Source: Klebsiella phage ZCKP1
Length of the DNA: 64,000 bases
Strand: one strand, 5' to 3'
Sequence record: MH252123.1
A model generated the notes under the pieces. It saw nothing but the letters and a program-made list of their open reading frames with translations, was not told the DNA's origin and did not search any database. Position 1 is the stretch's first letter. Each line of letters starts with the position of its first letter. Below are positions 2,301-24,908 of this stretch, one piece after another. Position numbers and translations under genes: made by a program.

Positions 2301-4538
2301 ATGTCAACTACAATTACTAATTTACCCGAAACATCAAAAGTTAATGGTTCAGATTACCTGGTTTTAGATCAACCTGATAAAACTGTTAAAAGCACAGTTT
2401 CCAACTTTCTTACTGACACTGGGGTGGTTTTAGCCACCCAGTTGAAAGATACAGATGGAGCAGATTTAATACAATCCTCAAATGGTAATACTGTTCAGGA
2501 AGAGTTGAATAACAATCTTCTTAATGATCGTGAACAGTGGCGTCGTAGTCTTGCTGAAGCGGGGTTAACACTTGTTGATGGTAGCTTTGAGGATGGTGCT
2601 ACATTAAATAATAATACTGATGCTGTTTGGTATATTGCAGGTGGACAGTGCTATACATGGGGTGGTGCTTTCCCTAAAGCTGTTCCCGCTGACTCAACCC
2701 CTACATCAACCGGTGGTATTGGTCTGGGTGCGTGGGTTAGCGTTGGAGATGCAACGCTTAGGCGGGAGTTAGCGTCAATTACTGGTCAGTTACTCGTAGG
2801 TTCTGCACGCCATCTGGACGACCTGCGCGGTATATTTCCTGGGGTCAGCAGCAGAATAAAAACGCTGGGGGCACTGGCTGCATATGATGGCGGAGGAGAC
2901 ACTTGGGTATTTGACCCGTCAGATATGAGCAGTCTGGTATCCCTCTACCCTAAAATATTTATCGCACCAACAACAGACCCATCAGGGGCTTCTGGGGCAT
3001 GGAAACTAGCATGGAATATGAAAGGCATTAATGCCTCTGCATACGGGATAGGGTTGAGCAAATCTTACTCACATGACACTGAAGCCCTACAGCAACTTGG
3101 TGACTGGAATAAAGCGATTCAGTGGATAAACCTTCCATCAGAGATGTATATCACTGAACTTAACTATACAGAAAACCCAAAATTTTATGGAATTGCTGGC
3201 GCAAATAGCGACCTGTCAGATACGCGCGGGATGGGATCCCGTGAGCATGGTTCTATTATTTATGCCAGAGATGCTGATTCTTCTAATCCAGTTATACACA
3301 TACATGGCAACCCTGGAACTGATAGACTTGGTGGTGTAGATATTTGCTATGTTTCTGTAGTAAGTGTCGATTTGATAGAAAACAGAAATTTAACCATTAA
3401 ACCGGAATTAAACCAAAGAAGCACAAGAACAGCTGTATTCCTGGAATATATAGCCTCAAAAACAAACATACAAGGTCTTGGAATTTTCGGCTTTAAAAAG
3501 TGCCTGTATGGGAATGAGGTTTGGGATGGTTCAATCCGCGATTTGGCTATAAGCATCGGGTCTGATGAAAATGGAACCGAACCAGCCGTGTTTTTTGGTT
3601 CATATGGTTCAGACAATTCTAACAACTTGACTATAGACACATTCCGTATTGAGCACTGCCCATACTCCCTTGAGGTTGATTTTGTAGACCACGTAAGATT
3701 TGTTAATGGCAAGATTGAAACGTATAGAAAACCGGATGCTACACATCATGTTGTTAAAGTTGGCAGCAAGGCAGAGAGGTATCTATTCTCAGGTGTGATG
3801 TTTGTAACCAACCCAACTACAGAAACCCCTTATCTGTATGAGCAAGGCAAGCAGGGTACTTATTCATCTTGCTGGATGACAGTAGGGGGAATCGCTGGCA
3901 ATTATCCAGGTGTTCGTTGGATTTACAGGGACCCAACCGGAACATCAGTAGTCAAGTTTATGGGCATGACAATAAACGGCCCAATGCAAGCTGATGGTAC
4001 GGATCCTACTGCATATCCTATCTACCTTGCCAGTTATGACGAGTTTGGTGGAACCATTAACTGCTACGATTCTTTTACCGTTAATGGCTCGGTAGTTAAC
4101 CCATCATATCAGGGGTTGATTTGCATGAACACCGGGACAAAGATGGGTAAACTGCACATAAACACCAACAACATAACAAAAACAGCGGGGACTGTATTTT
4201 ATGCAAGAGGGGGTGATTATGACATTGGCAAGCCAACACTAGCCGGTGCACCACATAGTCTGCTTGCTGGCGTTAAGAATGATATCAGAAAAATGATAAC
4301 CTCTGCGTCTGATATAGAAATATACCGACGCGAGACTATTTTATTAAGTCCAGGGACAACATTGAACTCAATGACGGGATTTGAGGGGCAGGTTATCCGC
4401 GTTATGACATTTGGCACCGGATGCATAATAAAACATTCAGGTCGGATAAATAACTCATCAGGCACTGATATTTCAATGACAGCAAATACGGTTTACACAT
4501 ATATGATGCTGACCGGCACAACTGCAAAACAAATTTAA
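2301..4538 (+). CDS. tailspike protein
   Basis: 745 aa. The N-terminal anchor-like segment (TITNLPETSKVNGSDYLVLD) is typical of phage tailspikes. It shares the W-G-FPK-VPA-STP-TTGGI motif with the ORF at 12944 and has a beta-rich, Asn/Gly-rich body. Confidence 0.7.
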   Translation: MSTTITNLPETSKVNGSDYLVLDQPDKTVKSTVSNFLTDTGVVLATQLKDTDGADLIQSSNGNTVQEELNNNLLNDREQWRRSLAEAGLTLVDGSFEDGATLNNNTDAVWYIAGGQCYTWGGAFPKAVPADSTPTSTGGIGLGAWVSVGDATLRRELASITGQLLVGSARHLDDLRGIFPGVSSRIKTLGALAAYDGGGDTWVFDPSDMSSLVSLYPKIFIAPTTDPSGASGAWKLAWNMKGINASAYGIGLSKSYSHDTEALQQLGDWNKAIQWINLPSEMYITELNYTENPKFYGIAGANSDLSDTRGMGSREHGSIIYARDADSSNPVIHIHGNPGTDRLGGVDICYVSVVSVDLIENRNLTIKPELNQRSTRTAVFLEYIASKTNIQGLGIFGFKKCLYGNEVWDGSIRDLAISIGSDENGTEPAVFFGSYGSDNSNNLTIDTFRIEHCPYSLEVDFVDHVRFVNGKIETYRKPDATHHVVKVGSKAERYLFSGVMFVTNPTTETPYLYEQGKQGTYSSCWMTVGGIAGNYPGVRWIYRDPTGTSVVKFMGMTINGPMQADGTDPTAYPIYLASYDEFGGTINCYDSFTVNGSVVNPSYQGLICMNTGTKMGKLHINTNNITKTAGTVFYARGGDYDIGKPTLAGAPHSLLAGVKNDIRKMITSASDIEIYRRETILLSPGTTLNSMTGFEGQVIRVMTFGTGCIIKHSGRINNSSGTDISMTANTVYTYMMLTGTTAKQI

Positions 4539-4549
4539 TGAGGTGAACT

Positions 4550-4840
4550 ATGTCATTTAAATTAGCAAAAACATTCACGGCCAATCTGACAACAGATACG
4601 GGTATGAATCTTGGACAAGAGCAGGTTACGGTAGATGTAACCTGTACCATCGCCATGATTACCATTACCCCTGACGGTACAGCCAGGGCTACTATTACGT
4701 CATCGGTAGGTGACGGCACGCCTGTCCAGACAGATATTTTTGAGTTCAGCTACTCAATGTCATCTGGTGTCGGTATATATGAACAAGCATTGGCAGAGAT
4801 ACTGGCGAGTGAGAAGTATACAGGGGCTGTTGCTGGATAA
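4550..4840 (+). CDS. hypothetical protein (late/structural operon)
   Basis: 96 aa ORF with RBS GAGG, located in the structural operon. Confidence 0.4.
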   Translation: MSFKLAKTFTANLTTDTGMNLGQEQVTVDVTCTIAMITITPDGTARATITSSVGDGTPVQTDIFEFSYSMSSGVGIYEQALAEILASEKYTGAVAG

Positions 4841-4857
4841 AAAAGGTGAGCGAGTCT

Positions 4858-5016
4858 ATGGGCGACCTTAGTACCCGACTTAAACGGGTAGAGGAGAGCA
4901 TCACTAAGTCTGAACCTACCATCGAAGAGTTCATTACCATTAAACATAAAGTTGCTGGTGCTGGAATTTTTGGCAAGTGGGCATGGGCTGTAGCAGGTGC
5001 AAATGGGCTTCATTAA
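4858..5016 (+). CDS. small hypothetical protein (52 aa, hydrophobic C-terminus)
   Basis: ATG with RBS AAGGTGA. It is below the 60-aa cutoff of the ORF track and has a G/A-rich hydrophobic tail. Confidence 0.3.
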   Translation: MGDLSTRLKRVEESITKSEPTIEEFITIKHKVAGAGIFGKWAWAVAGANGLH

Positions 5017-5193
5017 GGTTCACACAAGCTATGTCCTGCAAGCGCATGTCATCGCCATGTGATAAAATGATGAAAACATATCGTAGCAGGGTTAATCTTG
5101 TCTTTAGTTACTATCGTACTAACTCAAAGTGTTGTCACTACCACTGCAAGCCCCTCCAAAGAGGGGCTTACTTAGAAAAACAAAGAGGTTGTT

Positions 5194-15009: not shown

Positions 15010-17676
15010 ATGTTTCCAATTCCAATATTTACTATTATGACCAGCACTGGTGTCGTTCCTCTGCCAGCAGGTATTGTTAAAAAAGTAATCACTTTAGATT
15101 ACCCAGATAATGCTGGTAATTCTAACAGCAGTTTAGCAATTTTGCTTAATGATGGTAGATTGTTTACTCAAGGCACAAACCTTTTTGGTGAGATTGCAGA
15201 TGGAACTCGTAGTGCACGATTCAATAATTTCTACTTAGCTTCTACTGTAGTAGCGGATGTGTTTACCGCAGATCGTTGTTTTGTTATTAAAACTAACAGT
15301 GGAGGATGGCAATATTCAGGATTGACAGCAGGGTTGGTAGGATCTATAGCAGCAGGTGGTACGGATGCATGTGTAACTACTTGGACCAGCTTTCCATCTG
15401 TAATAACGGGGACTATCTCTTTAGCTAATCTTAAAGAGGTTAAGGGAGGATATAACAACACTCTCTGGTTAATGAATAGTGGTGTTCTTTATGGATCGGG
15501 TCAAAACACAGTAGGCAGTTTAGGTGCAAGTACTACTAACGAAGTTTCTACTCCTCGTCAAATAACGAGTGCAGCAGTTGCTTTTGATGCAGGTTACAAC
15601 CAATGCTCTTATGTCAACAATGTGGGAACCTTGCGTGTTTGTGGAGCCAGCAAAGGTTTAGCAGGTAATAATAACACAACAAAAGCTTTTATAAATGCTA
15701 CGATATCCACTACTGAAACAGTGTATGTCAAAGATTACATCAATACCGTTTCCCAGACAATAGTTGTAGGGGATACCTCCGGTGGAACTGGTACAACAAA
15801 CTACCTTTATGTTAGATCTAATACAGAAACAACCTACACTAAACTGGATACCTTTGCAGCAGGTTTCTCAACATGGAAGTTTCCACCGAGCCGCCACTCT
15901 TTTTTCGTTGGGATTAATAATTCCTTGTGGGCTATTGGTAAGAACTATACGGCAAACTTAGGTCTGGGGTATGATTCTGCGAGCGGAGATCCGCTCCAAG
16001 TGGGAAAACCAGTTAAACCTGAAGGAGTGGGTTCCTGGGATATAAACAAGCTCACAAGCGTTCATACGCTGAATATGGATGTTACTAACCAATTAGGTTA
16101 TCAAGGAACATTTTTCGTTTATAATGGAAATATGTATTATTCCGGTATTTGGAAAGACGGGAAAGCGTCATATCTGTTCAATAGTGGTCTAAACTATAAT
16201 AAATTCACACCGATAGCAAGCTCCGTGATTACGGGTGATATTCTGGCAACTGGCTTAACTACAGATTCTTTAGGAATTTGTATTGTAGGCGGAACTAAAC
16301 AGTTGACACATTCTGTTAGCCCAGAAGGAGGTAAACTTTTCAATATTAAATACACTTCTTCTGCCCCTGCAAACATGACAATATCATCTGCTGGTTTAAT
16401 GACTTTCCATGCAGAAGGTGGTTTTGATGCAGGTATGACAGCCTTAAACGCTGAAGGAACAACTTTATCAGATACCTCTGGAGGATATGCTTCAACATTG
16501 AGCGTTTACACCCCTAGCTTATCTGCGATGGATGTAGGAACAACACAAACAATGGTAGCAGAAATAACGCCAACAGGAGCAGCAAGCTTACCTGGTATGG
16601 TTGTTGAGTATTTCTCTAATGACCCTACGGTAGCAACAGTTGACCCCGTTACAGGCGTTATTACAGCGATTGCTGATGGGGATTGTCGTATCGGTTGTAG
16701 AGCAACTTATCAAGGTGTGGTAACTGCCGAAGATAGTTCTTATCTCGCAGTGAATGCTGTGGTGATTGTGATGGATTATGATTTGACGCAAGAAACTCTT
16801 CCATCGGGTGTTCAGGCTAATGGTGGGAACTCTTTTGCTCGTGCTTCTGGAGATATACTTGTAGCCACTAACACCTTGGTTGCTCCGTTGGAGTATGTTG
16901 GTACTACCCCTGCAGGTAGACGTGTAACAGCTAACACAGCTTCACAAATTTTTGTCAACAATGCCTTAACAAGTGCAAGCCCGTGGGTAAAGACCAACTT
17001 AACTGTTGCAGCTTCATCTGATAACTCTCCGGCTGGAACTACTGCCAATGTATTCAAATTAACTCCGACTACAACCTCTGGTAGTCATATCTTAACTGCA
17101 ACATATACTAACGCGTACAACATATATGCCGGACGTAACTGGTCTGCCTCTGTTTTCTTGAAAGCGAACGGGATTACTAAGGCCAAACTTAGACTAACAG
17201 CAGGAACAGAAATTAATGAGGGTACTTTTGATTTAGCAGCAGGCACATTCACAGGAAGTGAAGCTAATATTATATCTATGGGCAACGGTTGGTATCGTGC
17301 TATTCTGCATAAAACAGGGATAGCCAAACAGTCCTTCATAAGTTTTGAAATAATTGCCTTGGATGCAACTGGTGCGGAGATTTTCGCTGGAGATGGTACT
17401 AGTAACCTTGCAGTTTGGTTGCCACAGCTTGAAGGTGCTCCTACAGGAGAAACATCAAAAGCTGGATCGCCTTATGTCTGCACATATCCTGGAAATTTAG
17501 GAGCAGTATCCTTCACTATACCAAGGAACGGACATACTGGTGTAGATGTTTACTATTCCAACGGGGATGTTGTTCGTGATGTATTCTCTGGCACAGCATC
17601 TACTTGGACAATAGACTACTCCAGCTTGTACGATTGGGGATCAGTCTTTATTACAGGTTTGAAATATTACGACTAA
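15010..17676 (+). CDS. tail fibre protein with a bacterial Ig-like (Big_2-like) domain
   Basis: 888 aa, Thr/Gly/Ser-rich and beta-rich. An Ig-like segment runs around residues 500-590 (DPTVATVDPVTGVITAIADGDCRIGCRATYQGVVTAEDS). Confidence 0.6.
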   Translation: MFPIPIFTIMTSTGVVPLPAGIVKKVITLDYPDNAGNSNSSLAILLNDGRLFTQGTNLFGEIADGTRSARFNNFYLASTVVADVFTADRCFVIKTNSGGWQYSGLTAGLVGSIAAGGTDACVTTWTSFPSVITGTISLANLKEVKGGYNNTLWLMNSGVLYGSGQNTVGSLGASTTNEVSTPRQITSAAVAFDAGYNQCSYVNNVGTLRVCGASKGLAGNNNTTKAFINATISTTETVYVKDYINTVSQTIVVGDTSGGTGTTNYLYVRSNTETTYTKLDTFAAGFSTWKFPPSRHSFFVGINNSLWAIGKNYTANLGLGYDSASGDPLQVGKPVKPEGVGSWDINKLTSVHTLNMDVTNQLGYQGTFFVYNGNMYYSGIWKDGKASYLFNSGLNYNKFTPIASSVITGDILATGLTTDSLGICIVGGTKQLTHSVSPEGGKLFNIKYTSSAPANMTISSAGLMTFHAEGGFDAGMTALNAEGTTLSDTSGGYASTLSVYTPSLSAMDVGTTQTMVAEITPTGAASLPGMVVEYFSNDPTVATVDPVTGVITAIADGDCRIGCRATYQGVVTAEDSSYLAVNAVVIVMDYDLTQETLPSGVQANGGNSFARASGDILVATNTLVAPLEYVGTTPAGRRVTANTASQIFVNNALTSASPWVKTNLTVAASSDNSPAGTTANVFKLTPTTTSGSHILTATYTNAYNIYAGRNWSASVFLKANGITKAKLRLTAGTEINEGTFDLAAGTFTGSEANIISMGNGWYRAILHKTGIAKQSFISFEIIALDATGAEIFAGDGTSNLAVWLPQLEGAPTGETSKAGSPYVCTYPGNLGAVSFTIPRNGHTGVDVYYSNGDVVRDVFSGTASTWTIDYSSLYDWGSVFITGLKYYD

Positions 17677-17680
17677 TAAA

Positions 17681-17712
17681 AAAGGAGCCATTAGGCTCCT
17701 TTTCTTTTATTC
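17681..17712. terminator. bidirectional rho-independent terminator at a convergence point
   Basis: Stem AAAAAGGAGCC atta GGCTCCTTTT flanked by A-runs upstream and T-runs downstream. It separates the + late operon from the - strand genes. Confidence 0.65.
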
Positions 17713-18201
17713 AGCGTTCAATCCTTCACCATGTTCTTGATGCCAAGCCTCATGGTGTAGAGGACACAGCCATAGAACATCTAACGGTTTATCATAATCA
17801 CAATGATGAGCATGAACATCAACAGACCCACACACTTGGCAAGGTTGTTTTATTAACTTTCCATCTCGTAGTGCGTTACCTACAGCTATATGAGCAGAAC
17901 GTTTTTTCGGATTCTTTTCGATGTAACGTTTCTTAGCTTCATTAGCCTTATCTTTACCTTTCCCTTTTGCGTAAGCCTCTTTCAAAGCTTTGCGCTCTGG
18001 GGTCTGATCTCTGTTTTTATCATACTCTTTGTAATATTCAGATTTATCTTTACGATTCTGTTTAACATCTTTCTTATTACATTCTTTGCATTTATTGACG
18101 TGACCGTCAGCCATAGCTTTATGTTTGTAAAATTCAGTGAGGGGCTTTAACACCCCACACTTGAAACAAACCTTAGAAGCAATGCAGGAAGTTTCGACCA
18201 T
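17707..18201 (-). CDS. HNH homing-type endonuclease
   Basis: A Zn finger (CFKCG...CKEC) is followed by the HNH motif HHCDYDKPLDVLWLCPLHHEAWH. The start was moved to the internal ATG (MVETS) at 18199-18201. The N-terminal extension in the ORF track is low-complexity. Confidence 0.6.
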   Translation of the reverse strand: MVETSCIASKVCFKCGVLKPLTEFYKHKAMADGHVNKCKECNKKDVKQNRKDKSEYYKEYDKNRDQTPERKALKEAYAKGKGKDKANEAKKRYIEKNPKKRSAHIAVGNALRDGKLIKQPCQVCGSVDVHAHHCDYDKPLDVLWLCPLHHEAWHQEHGEGLNAE

Positions 18202-19105
18202 ATTGCAGTCCAATAGGGGCAAATGGAATATCATCGTCGAAGTCCATTGGAGGTTCTTCTTGATTACTTGGGGTTGGTTCTGGTTGTGGTTCAGGTTTCT
18301 TAACTTCTTTCTTCTCTTCTTTCTTAGGTTGTTCTGCGGAACCACGAATGGCAGCAGCAACTTTATCAGACAGAGCCAGAACTTTACGAGCAGAATCAAT
18401 CAGATCTTCTACAGAGACAGTCTTAATGGTATGGTCTTTACAAGCATTGAGAATAGCGTGACCAACAGATGCCCCAAGATCATAATCATTAATATCAACA
18501 CCACGAGATTCAGCAATTTCCGATTTCAGCGTGACAGTTGCAGATTGAACAACCCCAGCGATATCGAAAGCATCGCCTTTAACACCATTACGAATCAGTT
18601 CCAGTGCACCATTTACTGCGTGACCAGTTTCCAGACCTACAGTATCACGTTTTTTATAGGACTGCTTAGGAGCAGCATCGTTGGAACCCTTATTGCCAGA
18701 AGATTTGTTAGACTTCTGAACACCATCGGTAGACAATACTGTAATACGAGATTTTTTAGTATTGTAGTAAGTTTTACCGCCTTTATTGTCAACGCGATCA
18801 ATATCAATACTTACTTCTACACCTTTTTCAATAGTGATCCAGTTATCACCTTCTTTGACTTGCAGGTTTTCATAACCTTCTTTCAGTTCAATGTCACCAA
18901 GAGAAATCCAAACACCTTTCTCCTCTGGTTTAGCACCTTTCTCTTTCAGAACAAGAGAAGCTCGGTGAGTTGAAACAATCGTTTTTCCTTCCCAATGAAA
19001 AGTTTTAGGTTCAGCGAATTTATCCAGTTTAACGTAGTCTACGATACCAGTTGCATAAGTTACGGTTTTGCCTTTACGATCAGTTTCAGTATTAATTACG
19101 GACAT
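18173..19105 (-). CDS. single-stranded DNA-binding protein (putative)
   Basis: 310 aa with an acidic SSB-type tail motif (MDFDDDIPF) near the C-terminus and a preceding Pro/Glu/Lys-rich linker. It is the first gene of the replication module. Confidence 0.5.
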   Translation of the reverse strand: MSVINTETDRKGKTVTYATGIVDYVKLDKFAEPKTFHWEGKTIVSTHRASLVLKEKGAKPEEKGVWISLGDIELKEGYENLQVKEGDNWITIEKGVEVSIDIDRVDNKGGKTYYNTKKSRITVLSTDGVQKSNKSSGNKGSNDAAPKQSYKKRDTVGLETGHAVNGALELIRNGVKGDAFDIAGVVQSATVTLKSEIAESRGVDINDYDLGASVGHAILNACKDHTIKTVSVEDLIDSARKVLALSDKVAAAIRGSAEQPKKEEKKEVKKPEPQPEPTPSNQEEPPMDFDDDIPFAPIGLQYGRNFLHCF

Positions 19106-20733: not shown

Positions 20734-20781
20734 ATCTCCTCCTATAAAGGGGCAGAAGCCCCTTATAAAACAATGAGTTAA

Positions 20782-23700
20782 CTAGTGACAGGACGCCCAG
20801 GAGTTACCCACATCATATCCGGCAGTAAGCTGAACATTAAGATTGTAAAATTCTCCAGCCTTAGTAACAGCTAAAGCAGCAAGTTCACCTGCCCGACTAT
20901 AGGCTGTAAACCATCCACCTTTGGGAGATTCATGAATGTTAGCCCAAATTTGCCCTGTCTCTTTTTCCTTATTATGCTTCCATTCTTCAACTTTAGCAAG
21001 GCATTCTTTATCAATTTTCTTTTGTTCTTCAGGATCGTCTACTTTCTTCCAACCTAATGATTCAGGTGAAAACCATTTAAATTCTACAAGGTTACGAGAA
21101 ACTTCAAGCTGGGCTTCATCGTGATATGCAATCATTTGTTGCACGAAGTCTTTATTCTTCCAGTCATCTTTAAAGAAGTCAACACTTAGCCCTTCTTCTT
21201 CGATCATGTCATCATAAATAACCATTGCACGTTTGGCACAGATAACCCCACCACTTTGGAACAGAGAGTTAAGAATCGCGTGAGCAGAACGAGTAGGAAC
21301 CTTACGACCGTCAATACCCAAAACATACTGTTTACCAGTCTTAACCCAGAAATCGTTTAAACGTTCTTTAAGACGCGCCAGTGGGAATGCAGCTTCCCAG
21401 AAAGCATCGAACACCAGTTGCCCTGTGTATTTATCGCTACCAATTGTTTTAGCAACCTTGTCTGCTTGTGCACCATAAGTGATCCCGTATTTAACAGATT
21501 TCGCCGGACTACGTTCAAATTTACGTCCAATAGTTTCAGTGATACGTTTTGCCATCATTGTGTGAACATCATTAGGTTTCTCTAACAACAGAGCGTTACA
21601 ATATTCGTGTGGCTCCGGCTCGTACCGCCAACAGTTTCCTGTGATGGTAATGCAGTCTTTCTGACGCATGACCCACGTACCAAGTTCTGTTTGTGGACAC
21701 CAAACATCCTCTACACCCCACTCTTCAATAGTCAAACTTTGAACAGGAATGTGAGAGCGGTTAGTCAATGTTGCCACTTTTACTTTCTGCTCTTTTGTAT
21801 TGAAAGCTACAGAGATATTGCCTCCATGCACCAGGTACGAGGCAGTTAAAGCTGCTTCAAAAAGTTCACCTGGGTTCTGCGCCCAACGCCAAACAGGTTT
21901 TTGTTTATGTTCATGCCAGTAACCATCTGCAATCAAGAAACCTTCCAAGAAAGCTACACGCTCGGCATGAGACATATTAACTACACGCTCTACCCACGGA
22001 ACATCCCATTTACCTTGTTGAACATAAGTTAAACTATTTACCTGATCTTGTTCCATGTTAAATGGAGCATTACAAATAATATTATCTCCTGTGCAAAGCT
22101 CGGCAGTTGTTCTGACTTTAGGCACATAAGTATTCCCTTTACTACGGGTATTAACATACCAACGGTGATCTGCTGTTGCACGGTAAGTGTGTGATTTCCC
22201 TTTAATCTCAAACGTCTTACTATTTTTATAGAAGACCTTACCTTTTACTTTAGTCCATTCTTTCAGACCTGTTTCAGCATTGTACCCTAAAATCTCATCC
22301 CCTTCCTTCAGGTCGTGATATCCTACCCAACCTTTACGAGTCAAAGCTTGAGCATCCATCGGCACACAGTAATGTGACTCAATCTTTGCTTCCAAAGAGT
22401 CGAAGTCATAACCAATCTGGAAGTATTTAGGAACTTCTACACCAAACAAGTTACGCATCTCCCATCCAAACAAAGATGTGACACGAGGGATATTGGCTAC
22501 AGATCTATGCTTCATACGAGAGGTGGCAGCATCACATGTAGCGGCTGGGGTAGGAATACGCCCATCCGCCCTTACTGCGGCTAAGAAACCTTTATCGTAT
22601 TCTTGATCTTCTTCATCTTCTTCCCAATCAGCACCGCCACCTAAAATAGAGTTCCTACGATGCTTATACGTTAAGTATTCTACAATCTGTGTAGCATACG
22701 GGAATTTCTCACCCAAAGCTTGCAGGTTAGGACAGATTTCTTTTTCCTGACCTTTGGTAAAGCATGGGTTAGTCAATACTTTAAGACCGCGACCTTTACC
22801 TTTTGCTATACGCTCTTGAATCTTCCTTTCCAAAGTTTCCGGTGTGCACTCCAGATGATCACAACGATCCTGACAAAAATTAGAAGATAGAGTTTGCTCA
22901 ACGTAAGCTCGAATACCTTTCTGAAGTTCTTCCTCGCTCTTTTTAATCTTGGTGCCAGATTTAAGAGTCAAATCTTTATCTTTATATTCAGATGGTACCC
23001 AACCTAATCCTACAAGCCAGTTTTTAATATGGGTAGTATCGTTCAATGTTGCAGGGATATTAGGATCACACAAAGGCTCATCTGCTGCAACTGGCAGTTT
23101 CCACTCTTTCCCCAACATCACTAACCACCAATCTCCATCCCTCTCTTCCAAATGACCATCATGTTTCTTAGCAAAATTGATCATATGGTTAGTTGGCTCT
23201 AAGTTCTTTTTAATTTGCAACTTAGGTGGAATAAAAGCCTTAAGATAACCTTTTGTTGCTGGTTTAGGTGGCAAAATAGGCTCAACGAGTAAACGAAGAC
23301 GCTCCATTTCTGCATCCAAAAAAGCAAGGTTCTCTTCTGCTTGCTTCATGTTAAAAGCAAACCCACGGTGTTCCTGGCGTGTAATAATGTCTGCTACACG
23401 TTGTTCAAGTTCAAATGGACCTTCCCATTTATCATAATCACCCCATTCTTCCATAAGGTAATTATATACACTTGTGTTGGCTTTGTTATCATAGATACAG
23501 TAATAAAGCATATCCGCAGCAAAAGTCTTAAATCGATCTTCTTCTGGAATCTCTTTACGGAAATCTATTTTTACATCACCGCCTGCTTTTCGAGAAAGTG
23601 CTGCCAAGCTATGTCCTGATTTGCCCTCAATCTTTCGATCTGGGTTTAACACTTTACTCAAAATCAAAGAGTCAATAAGTTTTACCTTATTTTTGCCCCA

Positions 23701-24114
23701 CGTGTTATATTTAACACTGTAATCTAATCCATAAAACAGTTTTGTAGCCAACCAGTCATAGTTGATACCGTTGTGTGCCACAGCCATTTCAACCAAATAT
23801 TCAGGCTTGTCTTTAAAATAACCTTCATGATTAATAAAGTCTGGGAAATCTTTTAGTTGAAAATGTGTGTAATCTTGCGCCACATATTCTTTAAGAACAT
23901 ACGTGTATTTACCATCTGATTCTTCATAAGGACGCCCGTCAAAAATATACTTAGGGCCATCGTGGAAAGCTACTATTTCTCCTGTTTCATGGTTCTCTAA
24001 GACAATACAGTGCATTTGAAATGTGTCTTTGAGACGATAAGGACTAGCTAAATAATCGATAGTGTCATTATTCAACAATCCGTTTGCTTCAATATCCCAT
24101 GTAAACTTACTCAC
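20782..24114 (-). CDS. DNA polymerase, family A, with 3'-5' exonuclease domain, interrupted by an intein
   Basis: Exo I motif DIEANGL at the N-terminus. Pol A motif A is YDFDSLEAKI and motif B is RSPAKSVKYGITYGAQ. The segment NDVHTMMAKRITETIG parallels T7 gp5. There is an insertion of about 245 aa after motif A. Confidence 0.85.
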   Translation of the reverse strand: MSKFTWDIEANGLLNNDTIDYLASPYRLKDTFQMHCIVLENHETGEIVAFHDGPKYIFDGRPYEESDGKYTYVLKEYVAQDYTHFQLKDFPDFINHEGYFKDKPEYLVEMAVAHNGINYDWLATKLFYGLDYSVKYNTWGKNKVKLIDSLILSKVLNPDRKIEGKSGHSLAALSRKAGGDVKIDFRKEIPEEDRFKTFAADMLYYCIYDNKANTSVYNYLMEEWGDYDKWEGPFELEQRVADIITRQEHRGFAFNMKQAEENLAFLDAEMERLRLLVEPILPPKPATKGYLKAFIPPKLQIKKNLEPTNHMINFAKKHDGHLEERDGDWWLVMLGKEWKLPVAADEPLCDPNIPATLNDTTHIKNWLVGLGWVPSEYKDKDLTLKSGTKIKKSEEELQKGIRAYVEQTLSSNFCQDRCDHLECTPETLERKIQERIAKGKGRGLKVLTNPCFTKGQEKEICPNLQALGEKFPYATQIVEYLTYKHRRNSILGGGADWEEDEEDQEYDKGFLAAVRADGRIPTPAATCDAATSRMKHRSVANIPRVTSLFGWEMRNLFGVEVPKYFQIGYDFDSLEAKIESHYCVPMDAQALTRKGWVGYHDLKEGDEILGYNAETGLKEWTKVKGKVFYKNSKTFEIKGKSHTYRATADHRWYVNTRSKGNTYVPKVRTTAELCTGDNIICNAPFNMEQDQVNSLTYVQQGKWDVPWVERVVNMSHAERVAFLEGFLIADGYWHEHKQKPVWRWAQNPGELFEAALTASYLVHGGNISVAFNTKEQKVKVATLTNRSHIPVQSLTIEEWGVEDVWCPQTELGTWVMRQKDCITITGNCWRYEPEPHEYCNALLLEKPNDVHTMMAKRITETIGRKFERSPAKSVKYGITYGAQADKVAKTIGSDKYTGQLVFDAFWEAAFPLARLKERLNDFWVKTGKQYVLGIDGRKVPTRSAHAILNSLFQSGGVICAKRAMVIYDDMIEEEGLSVDFFKDDWKNKDFVQQMIAYHDEAQLEVSRNLVEFKWFSPESLGWKKVDDPEEQKKIDKECLAKVEEWKHNKEKETGQIWANIHESPKGGWFTAYSRAGELAALAVTKAGEFYNLNVQLTAGYDVGNSWASCH
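21634..22368 (-). other. intein (Hint domain with single LAGLIDADG-like motif) within the DNA polymerase
   Basis: Begins with Cys (CVPMDAQALTRKGW, block A-like). It contains a TxxH block B (RATADHRWYV) and a LAGLIDADG-like motif (LEGFLIADGY). It ends ...CITITGN followed by Cys+1. The flanking extein sequences align continuously with T7 pol. Confidence 0.55.
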
Positions 24115-24908
24115 TATTCCTCCTTTCTAATGTTCTCCAGAACCCACTGAAGCTCTTTTAAACTTAAACTTCTTACTCCCGCAGTTTTACTAGCTTCGGC
24201 TTTAAGTAACGGGTAAGCCTCAATGATACGCGTTTTAAGATCAGAAGTCAAGGCTTTTAAAAAATAGGTAGATGCTTCAGATAAAGAATCTTCTTCTGAT
24301 AACACTTTACCTGCACTTGCTCCCGCTCTCCTAACGGCTATGTCGTAGTCTTTACTGTTGCCTAATACGAATAGTCGATTTTCTCCTAAAACAACGGGAG
24401 AACGCTTCTCGTTGCGTTTAATCCATACCTGGAATACACAAGGAACATCCCAAGGTTCTCCATGAAGAATAAAAGATCCTTTTGGACATTCTTCTTCGTA
24501 AAGAAGATGCATGTGGGGATTTAGTTTGTGTGCAAAAAAGATTTTTTGAAATGTGCGAGGCAAGATAAAACAAATACCACCTTCGTTATCCAGCATTTCA
24601 GCACAATGGTTAAAGAACTTAATGGCAAGACTAGCATTTTTTCCAAATGGAGGATTACCGACAAAAGCAGTTACACTACCAACAGATTCAACAGATTGAG
24701 CTAAAAAATCTGCCTCAATACAATCTTCAAACTTAGGGTCAATATCAAAAGAAGTTATGTTTTTAAAACAAGAAGAGAAAGCTCCTTCTCCCGCAGATGG
24801 TTCTACGTAGTTAGCTTCCTCTCCAAAAATTTCTTTGATCTTATCACATAAGAACCCCGCATAAGCGGGGTTAGTGTAATATTGATCAAGTGTGTTCAAC
24901 TTGCTCAA
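24114..24908 (-). CDS. DNA N6-adenine methyltransferase
   Basis: N-terminal DQYYTNP, an AdoMet motif (EPSAGEGAF) and catalytic NPPF. Confidence 0.7.
   Translation of the reverse strand: MSKLNTLDQYYTNPAYAGFLCDKIKEIFGEEANYVEPSAGEGAFSSCFKNITSFDIDPKFEDCIEADFLAQSVESVGSVTAFVGNPPFGKNASLAIKFFNHCAEMLDNEGGICFILPRTFQKIFFAHKLNPHMHLLYEEECPKGSFILHGEPWDVPCVFQVWIKRNEKRSPVVLGENRLFVLGNSKDYDIAVRRAGASAGKVLSEEDSLSEASTYFLKALTSDLKTRIIEAYPLLKAEASKTAGVRSLSLKELQWVLENIRKEE

Follow-up and report, generated by a model that had tools for sequence, protein, structure and literature searches.

The family A DNA polymerase gene of Klebsiella phage ZCKP1 is interrupted by an intein of 245 residues. The gene is on the minus strand of the stretch of DNA that we analyzed, 64,000 nucleotides of sequence record MH252123.1 (hereafter the window), and the intein occupies positions 21634-22368. 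Identification of this segment as an intein is supported by comparison with related phages, by profile searches and by structure prediction. It is very probable that an essential phage gene, the polymerase, is occupied here by a bona fide and splicing-competent intein. The finding is correct and largely ordinary: its orthologue already bears an intein annotation in MZ501100.1 and PQ821640.1. The remaining interest lies in its hybrid catalytic signature and its half-size endonuclease. The principal features of the gene are as follows.

20782-24114, minus strand: intein-containing family A DNA polymerase precursor of 1110 residues (open reading frame (ORF) list, GTG start; Pfam; PHROG; T7 gp5 alignment)
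22369-24114, minus strand: N-extein, residues 1-582, with the exonuclease domain and the polymerase domain through motif A (empty-allele and T7 alignments)
22384-22407, minus strand: polymerase motif A, DFDSLEAK, DASGLELR in T7 (T7 alignment)
22366-22368, minus strand: Cys1, the putative N-terminal nucleophile in block A (sequence; Cys in 164/164 clade copies)
21634-22368, minus strand: intein, 245 residues, Cys1 to Asn245, precursor residues 583-827 (735-bp insertion relative to Schickermooser; HINT fold; clade profile E 2e-102)
21631-21633, minus strand: Cys+1, the first C-extein residue, native to the polymerase (empty alleles likewise read HY-C-WRY)
20782-21633, minus strand: C-extein, residues 828-1110 plus the stop codon, with polymerase motifs B and C (T7 alignment)
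21469-21501, minus strand: polymerase motif B, KSVKYGITYGA, unoccupied here and the site of a 324-residue intein in phage nieznany and others (comparison with relatives)

The 735-bp segment is a true insertion and not a chance feature. The polymerase gene is 96-98% identical to its counterparts in the Phapecoctavirus coliphages (Stephanstirmvirinae), and the window represents a coliphage of Phapecoctavirus-like type. In Schickermooser, ESCO13, phAPEC8 and others, whose exteins are 96-98% identical to those of the window, the 735 bp are precisely absent. The Schickermooser polymerase has 865 residues and reads ...IESHY-CWRYEPE... across the site. Its gene is 97.8% identical in DNA to the exteins, and the window differs from it by a clean gain of 735 bp. 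The placement of the insertion at residues 583-827 in the original prediction is exact by ORF mapping. That prediction also proposed an alignment with intein-less polymerases. About half of the close relatives lack the segment precisely, so it is not a conserved ordinary domain. The whole query is covered in 32 of the 125 matching phage records, and many others cover 78% of it in two pieces. The reading frame is continuous through the segment, with no stop codon.

The intein runs from CVPMDAQ... to ...CITITGN. Its upstream flank is ...DFDSLEAKIESHY (...GYDFDSLEAKIESHY), and its downstream flank is CWRYEPEPHEY... The DNA of the empty target site reads ...AATCACACTAC followed directly by TGTTGGCGATAC..., and in phAPEC8 and Schickermooser it reads ...GAATCACACTAC followed directly by TGTTGGCGATACGAG... 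Empty alleles of Phapecoctavirus and of a second genus, Justusliebigvirus, both have the native HY-C-WRY and near-identical DNA around the site. Because intein codon 1 and the +1 codon are both TGT, the boundary at the DNA level is ambiguous by 3 nt. The chemistry of splicing requires Cys1...Asn245 followed by Cys+1, which favors the boundaries originally predicted. In PaulScherrer (MZ501100.1, 3004-3738 of the retrieved locus), the mature-peptide feature labeled 'intein' is placed one codon downstream, so that Val would be its first residue and Cys its last. The shift is accounted for by the repeated TGT at the two junctions. The GC content of the intein is 0.42, not different from that of the exteins, so base composition gives no signal of foreign origin.

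The host protein is a polymerase on both sides of the insertion. Pfam DNA_pol_A (E 1e-11) and PHROG 17, DNA polymerase (4e-106, in two stretches), match the precursor on either side of the 245-residue segment. Motifs A (DFDSLEAK), B (KSVKYGITYGA) and C (YHDEAQ) occur in order. The spliced exteins align with T7 DNA polymerase (gp5) without a gap across the junction (phmmer, E 1e-19), as the earlier reading of the sequence had suggested. This alignment pairs HYCWRY with HFMARF, DFDSLEAK with DASGLELR, and KYGITYGA with FIYGFLYGA.

Structure prediction indicates a HINT fold. An AlphaFold model of the intein built on an alignment of nine relatives had a predicted local distance difference test score (pLDDT) of 84.2 and a predicted template modeling score of 0.82. 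A Foldseek search of the PDB gave 47 matches at E<=0.001, all of them inteins, Hedgehog or bacterial intein-like (BIL) HINT domains. The top match is the TliVMA intein (E 1e-8, TM-score 0.70 over the query), followed by PI-SceI and then by mini-inteins, Hedgehog and BIL domains. A profile built from the nine relatives matched the solved inteins NrdJ-1 (E 1e-4 to 2e-4), Spl DnaX (2e-4) and AceL NrdHF (3e-4 to 2e-3). The sequence elements listed in the original prediction are all present: the Cys start, a Thr-x-x-His block B (T65, H68), the LAGLIDADG-like FLEGFLIADG, the Gly-Asn end and Cys at +1.

The intein belongs to a very large clade that is almost phage-only. A word-indexed homologue search returned only 9 proteins. 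An exhaustive hidden Markov model (HMM) search of 1.84 billion cluster representatives, which revealed the clade, found 7206 of them at E<=1e-3, of which 532 reached E<=1e-30. For residue counts, we delimited 164 intein copies in the best 150 proteins, with a median length of 252 residues and including 124 compact copies (235-275 residues). All 164 copies start with Cys, 163/164 end in Gly-Asn, and in 162/164 the residue before this pair is Thr. Thr65, His68, Cys224, Thr243 and Asn245 are each present in 124/124 compact copies, Trp70 and Gly244 in 123/124. The residue at +1 is Ser in 90 copies, Thr in 44 and Cys in 30. The block B, F and G residues lie as follows.

22159-22176, minus strand: block B, TADHRW, with Thr65 (B:7), His68 (B:10) and Trp70 (B:12) (Thr and His 124/124, Trp 123/124)
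21634-21708, minus strand: blocks F and G, DVWCPQTELGTWVMRQKDCITITGN, with Cys224 (F:4), Thr243 (G:5), Gly244 (G:6) and Asn245 (G:7) (conservation; Spl DnaX alignment; Cys-to-Asn spacing 21)

The Gly-Asn end had been singled out as unusual. It is there, and its near invariance makes it a trait of the whole clade rather than a quirk of this copy. The site next to motif A had likewise been called a classic intein hotspot. Among the best 150 proteins, three unrelated family A polymerases have an intein at the equivalent site (...DASxLExRxxxHY/T[WY][KR]YDNG, the slash marking the insertion point), so the clade does use it recurrently. It is a minor site, with 3/164 copies compared to 45/164 at motif B (K..xYA/[TC]xYGAG). 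Another 46 copies are found in a small uncharacterized phage protein. This protein, the commonest host among the best matches, is split at ...KFDVYP/SAYANGWAAK... (P0003-P0005, P0010-P0014 and about 40 others), and no Pfam domain was found in two such proteins (P0011, P0022). Several metagenomic proteins (P0015, P0020, P0035, P0038, P0058, P0075) carry two or more clade copies at different sites. Within the window, a search with the clade profile found no further copy.

Curated profile libraries did not recognize this copy, which counts against its identification as an intein. Scans of the 245-residue segment with Pfam, NCBIfam and PHROGs gave no significant intein match. The Pfam Intein_splicing and Hint profiles and the NCBIfam intein profiles were all unmatched by it. 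A single-sequence search of the PDB gave sub-threshold matches only, all but one of them to inteins. The Hint-domain search originally proposed therefore succeeded with the family profile and the fold and failed with the curated profiles. One member of the clade does pass the Pfam Intein_splicing cut-off (38.4 vs 35.8 bits). The lack of a Hint call in the domain libraries would also fit a lineage-specific polymerase domain, a group I or group II intron, or a free-standing homing endonuclease gene, as would the homologous insertion in Pseudomonas phage KIL1, which is annotated as a joined, intron-like coding sequence (CDS). We consider such an identity extremely improbable. Intron and ordinary-domain identities were rejected because alleles with 97-98% identical exteins lack exactly this insertion, its frame is open, its fold is HINT, and no Rfam match at E<=1, hence no intron-like RNA, was found in 21300-22700. 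Moreover, the catalytic intein positions are all conserved across thousands of relatives, and the KIL1 insertion itself belongs to the clade, being in frame, with Cys1 at its start and TITGN/C at its end. In KIL1 (KU130126.1), the 993 nt between the two CDS pieces (1501-2493 of the retrieved locus) correspond to an in-frame motif B intein that starts CLPVD... and ends TITGN/C. The two-piece join in that record is probably wrong.

Residue conservation suggests that the standard class 1 pathway is the likeliest route of splicing, and we regard it as probable. Cys1 would form a thioester at the N-terminal junction, aided by Thr65 and His68. The N-extein would then be transferred to Cys+1, and cyclization of Asn245 would free the intein and leave the exteins joined as ...ESHY-CWRY... 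Since the intein is located seven residues past the motif A glutamate, the polymerase is expected to be inactive before the intein is excised. The intein occurs at >=90% identity in at least 33 phage records. These intein-bearing phages are viable, so the precursor evidently gives a working polymerase, which points to splicing. The invariance of Cys1 suggests that it is used, unlike the non-nucleophilic position 1 of class 3 inteins, and is the main argument for class 1.

Two features weigh against the class 1 route. The canonical assisting residues, which many but not all inteins have, are replaced: F:4 is Cys224 in place of the block F Asp, the penultimate residue is Gly244 in place of His, and block F has no His. 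In addition, the complete triad Trp B:12, Cys F:4 and Thr G:5 (W70, C224, T243) is present, so that the class 1 route is not certain. This Trp/Cys/Thr (WCT) triad defines class 3 inteins (PMC2807308, PMC5222942), and its invariance is the main argument for an essential role of Cys224. Non-canonical assisting residues are documented in functional inteins (PMC5050341 among other sources). Mycobacteriophage inteins often have another residue in place of the penultimate His (Kelley et al., 2016, PMC5050341). The Bethlehem RDF intein has a penultimate Gly and splices completely, and a Gly-to-His substitution slows its splicing (PMC5050341).

The triad raises the alternative of class 3-like or relay splicing, in which Cys224 would attack first, or would take the N-extein from Cys1 and pass it to the +1 residue, making the intein a class 1/class 3 hybrid. 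Several observations fit this. Cys224, in DVWCP, aligns with the Asp in block F (VYDIEV) of the class 1 mini-intein Spl DnaX in an HMM alignment. His68, Trp70 and the spacing of 21 match Msm DnaB-1 (65, 67 and 118-139) and Mle DnaB (65, 67 and 124-145) (PMC5222942). Like class 3 inteins, the clade has Ser or Thr at +1 in most copies (82%). Both histidines are also missing from AceL NrdHF, a class 3 split intein of solved structure and the best mini-intein structural match. For three WCT inteins with Ser or Cys at position 1, Tori et al. did not settle the mechanism (PMC2807308). We nevertheless think this route unlikely. Class 3 inteins have no N-terminal nucleophile, and their non-nucleophilic position 1 co-varies with the WCT triad (PMC2807308), whereas Cys, the nucleophile absent from class 3, is invariant at this position here. 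Thr B:7 is also invariant here and dispensable in the class 3 prototype (PMC2807308). Cys at F:4 also occurs in a polyphyletic set of class 1 inteins outside the monophyletic class 3 clade (PMC3196547). Finally, sequence profiles placed the clade no nearer to MchDnaB1 or MsmDnaB1 than to class 1 inteins. The structural matches showed no preference between the two classes.

The second part of the intein is a LAGLIDADG domain of half the usual size. The motif noted in the original prediction is present, and it is part of one half-domain only.

21766-21969, minus strand: single LAGLIDADG half-domain, intein residues about 134-201, with the order helix, two strands, helix, two strands (DSSP of both models; Foldseek)
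21922-21951, minus strand: LAGLIDADG motif FLEGFLIADG, with Asp148-Gly149 (sequence; Asp-Gly and Gln164 kept in >=90% of 124 copies)

The half-domain is nested between the two halves of the HINT fold in the AlphaFold model. Modeled alone on 28 diverse relatives, it had a pLDDT of 84.8. Foldseek matched it to PI-SceI, I-DmoI, I-HjeMI, I-CeuI and WhiA with probabilities of 0.96-1.0 over about 75 columns and a root-mean-square deviation of 2.3-3.7 Å, at E-values of only 0.03-0.2. Characterized intein endonucleases such as PI-SceI have two LAGLIDADG motifs. Single-motif LAGLIDADG enzymes act as homodimers, so the simplest way for this half-domain to cut DNA would be a dimer of inteins. It would then act as a homing endonuclease by pairing two intein copies. 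This intein lacks the additional upstream LAGLIDADG motif of its longer relatives (nieznany, 324 residues; KIL1, 331 residues; Pinkcreek; Bethlehem RDF). The compact form of 240-260 residues is found again, at about 30% identity and with unchanged internal boundaries, in unrelated host proteins, suggesting that it is not a one-off decay product.

Conservation leads us to lean towards a half-domain that is still a functional homing endonuclease. A number of results weigh against this. There is one LAGLIDADG motif and not two, which makes endonuclease activity doubtful. The half-domain had no significant sequence match to LAGLIDADG enzymes (its profile gave I-DmoI as the best PDB match, at E 0.11), and Pfam LAGLIDADG_3 matched below threshold (E 0.14, 12.9 bits vs a cut-off of 22.5). 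No pseudo-palindrome was found in the empty target site, where the best arrangement had 5/11 matches and 86% of shuffled sequences did equally well; symmetric recognition therefore gains no support. Empty alleles with an unchanged target coexist with occupied ones.

An alternative is that the half-domain is catalytically dead and kept because the HINT fold tolerates or needs it. The distribution of the intein would then reflect vertical descent and homologous recombination, with occasional precise loss. This is a serious possibility, to which we give somewhat less than an even chance. Empty and occupied alleles with identical targets occur at similar frequency, and nuclease-dead LAGLIDADG folds are known, with WhiA and the bI3 maturase among the structural matches. 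Mini-intein relatives with the domain deleted also exist (P0006, P0008, P0009, Mithridates). P0006 is a version of P0002 from which the half-domain is cleanly deleted. A dead remnant does not readily account for Asp148-Gly149 and Gln164 being kept in copies that are otherwise highly divergent, nor for the alignment of Asp148 and Gln164 with the catalytic Asp and the Gln region of I-DmoI. The occurrence of the compact form in many unrelated hosts and sites with the same boundaries is hard to explain without mobility of that form, and the intein is far less diverged than the exteins across two genera.

The distribution of the intein is consistent with recent horizontal spread by homing or recombination, and repeated precise loss could also account for it. 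Intein-plus and intein-minus alleles alternate down the Phapecoctavirus similarity ranking. They are also interleaved in a neighbor-joining tree of 13 extein alleles, where EF1-1 (plus) groups with ECO340P1 (minus) and 118_SA_NWU (plus) with ESCO13 (minus). This tree has no support values and could be blurred by recombination, which weakens the argument. Among plus alleles, the intein differs on average by 6.2 nt per 735 nt and the exteins by 24.8, making the intein about four times less diverged. Compared to the window, the Justusliebigvirus PaulScherrer has 91.6% nucleotide identity in the intein, 73% in the N-extein and 79% in the C-extein. The interleaving and the low divergence of the intein together point to recent horizontal spread. 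A working endonuclease would explain such spread among Phapecoctavirus and Justusliebigvirus.

A broader scenario combines these threads. The clade could represent the long-postulated phage ancestor-like state of class 3 inteins, with a relay from Cys1 to Cys224 to the +1 residue and an endonuclease active only as a dimer of two inteins. We regard this combination as speculative and quite improbable. In the literature, we found no description of an endonuclease working only as a dimer of two inteins.

The closest known relatives are the inteins of PaulScherrer (MZ501100.1, BASEL collection) and SD2 (PQ821640.1). They are at the same site, ESHY/CWRY, have the same length of 245 residues and share 97% amino acid identity with this one. 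The copy in phi92 is unannotated. The PaulScherrer gene, whose exteins are 73-79% identical, is labeled 'intein-containing DNA polymerase precursor'. We found no experimental or mechanistic paper on this intein in the literature. According to a 2024 paper, inteins had not been reported in coliphages, and the BASEL paper says of inteins only that they were annotated.

A second intein occupies motif B of the same gene in nieznany (MN850598.1, 3001-3972 of the retrieved locus), ukendt, nepoznato, AV126, phiWec187 and other phages of this subfamily. It belongs to the same clade, has 324 residues, is 32% identical to the motif A intein, starts CVPVD..., contains TNDHMW and VFC and ends TLTGN/C. It is located 50 residues downstream (KYG/C-TYGAQ, with Ile replaced by Cys at +1) and has two LAGLIDADG motifs. 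The motif A site in these phages reads HY-T-WRYDNP. The 50-residue extein patch between the two sites is unusually diverged in the phages with the motif B intein (HY-TWRYDNPDHA...). Together with the change of Ile to Cys, this looks like co-conversion from a distant donor. Four records of Campylobacter phages, A150, A145, A110a and B15 (MG065639, MG065645, MG065689 and MG065650), contain polymerases 79-96% identical to those of these coliphages, including the motif B intein. Their Campylobacter jejuni host label appears doubtful.

Other characterized systems resemble the intein in part. The intein of the Bethlehem RDF, a phosphoesterase, is a distant relative that matches the clade profile along its whole length, at about 21-25 bits per terminal block, and shares Cys1, Cys F:4 (in VWC), the Thr-Gly-Asn end (HLTGN/S) and a phage host. 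It differs in having 317 residues, two LAGLIDADG motifs, Val at B:12, Ser at +1 and another host protein. The class 3 inteins (MP-Be DnaB, Msm DnaB-1, Mch DnaB-1 and AceL NrdHF) have the same triad and spacing and a proposed phage origin, and AceL NrdHF likewise lacks the block F and penultimate His. Unlike the present intein, they have no N-terminal nucleophile, and most keep the penultimate His and are located in helicase or ATPase P-loops. PI-SceI and the Tli and Pho VMA inteins are the best overall structural matches, with a LAGLIDADG domain nested in HINT and a weak sequence match over the second LAGLIDADG motif. They have 360-450 residues and a two-motif, pseudo-dimeric endonuclease, with a DNA-recognition region in PI-SceI, compared to a half-domain in 245 residues here. 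Enzymes of the I-CreI and I-CeuI type, as here, have one LAGLIDADG helix, a helix-and-strand core and a conserved Asp and Gln. They are free-standing, intron-encoded proteins of about 160-220 residues with near-palindromic sites, whereas the domain here has about 70-100 residues and is located within a HINT domain.

Inteins in phage replication proteins are common, and the presence of this one is not surprising. Recognizing it has practical consequences. The mature polymerase is then predicted to have 865 residues and not 1110, and the intein accounts for a 735-bp presence/absence polymorphism among phages developed for therapy. In most of the 30-odd public records with this element, the gene is named only 'DNA polymerase I' or 'hypothetical protein', and the clade as a whole escapes the standard profile libraries. 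It can serve as a natural test of whether the triad of class 3 is compatible, or cooperates, with a nucleophile of class 1, and of whether half a LAGLIDADG domain can drive homing. Both questions are readily studied in Escherichia coli phages, where partners with and without the intein occur naturally and a different site of this gene bears a second intein allele.

Several minor observations concern the gene and its surroundings. The GTG start of the polymerase at 24114 shares one base with the stop codon of the upstream DNA methyltransferase gene (24114-24908). In RefSeq NC_052654.1 (position 20041), the start of a relative's polymerase is placed 33 codons further in. With two candidate starts, the true start codon and the residue numbering are uncertain.

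The original prediction mentioned two HNH-like genes in the same genome. A motif pattern search of the window gave one implausible match, and in the annotation of a close relative, compared over the collinear 44 kb, there is none. In EF1-1, an ORF annotated as an HNH endonuclease directly follows the polymerase (L020, 3114-3704), and ORFs of similar size are present at three other loci (L014, 2382-2960; L003, 4704-5282; L001, 4617-5204). An ORF of about 580-600 nt at this position is absent from the window, where the gap is 20734-20781, and from ESCO13, phAPEC8 and others. No homologue of the EF1-1 HNH gene was found anywhere in the window. Positions 1-44058 of the window are collinear with vB_EcoM-Ro121c4YLVW at 95-98% identity, except for 2753-5020 and 17400-18221. 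The first of these, 2753-5020, lies in the tail spike and tail protein region of that relative.

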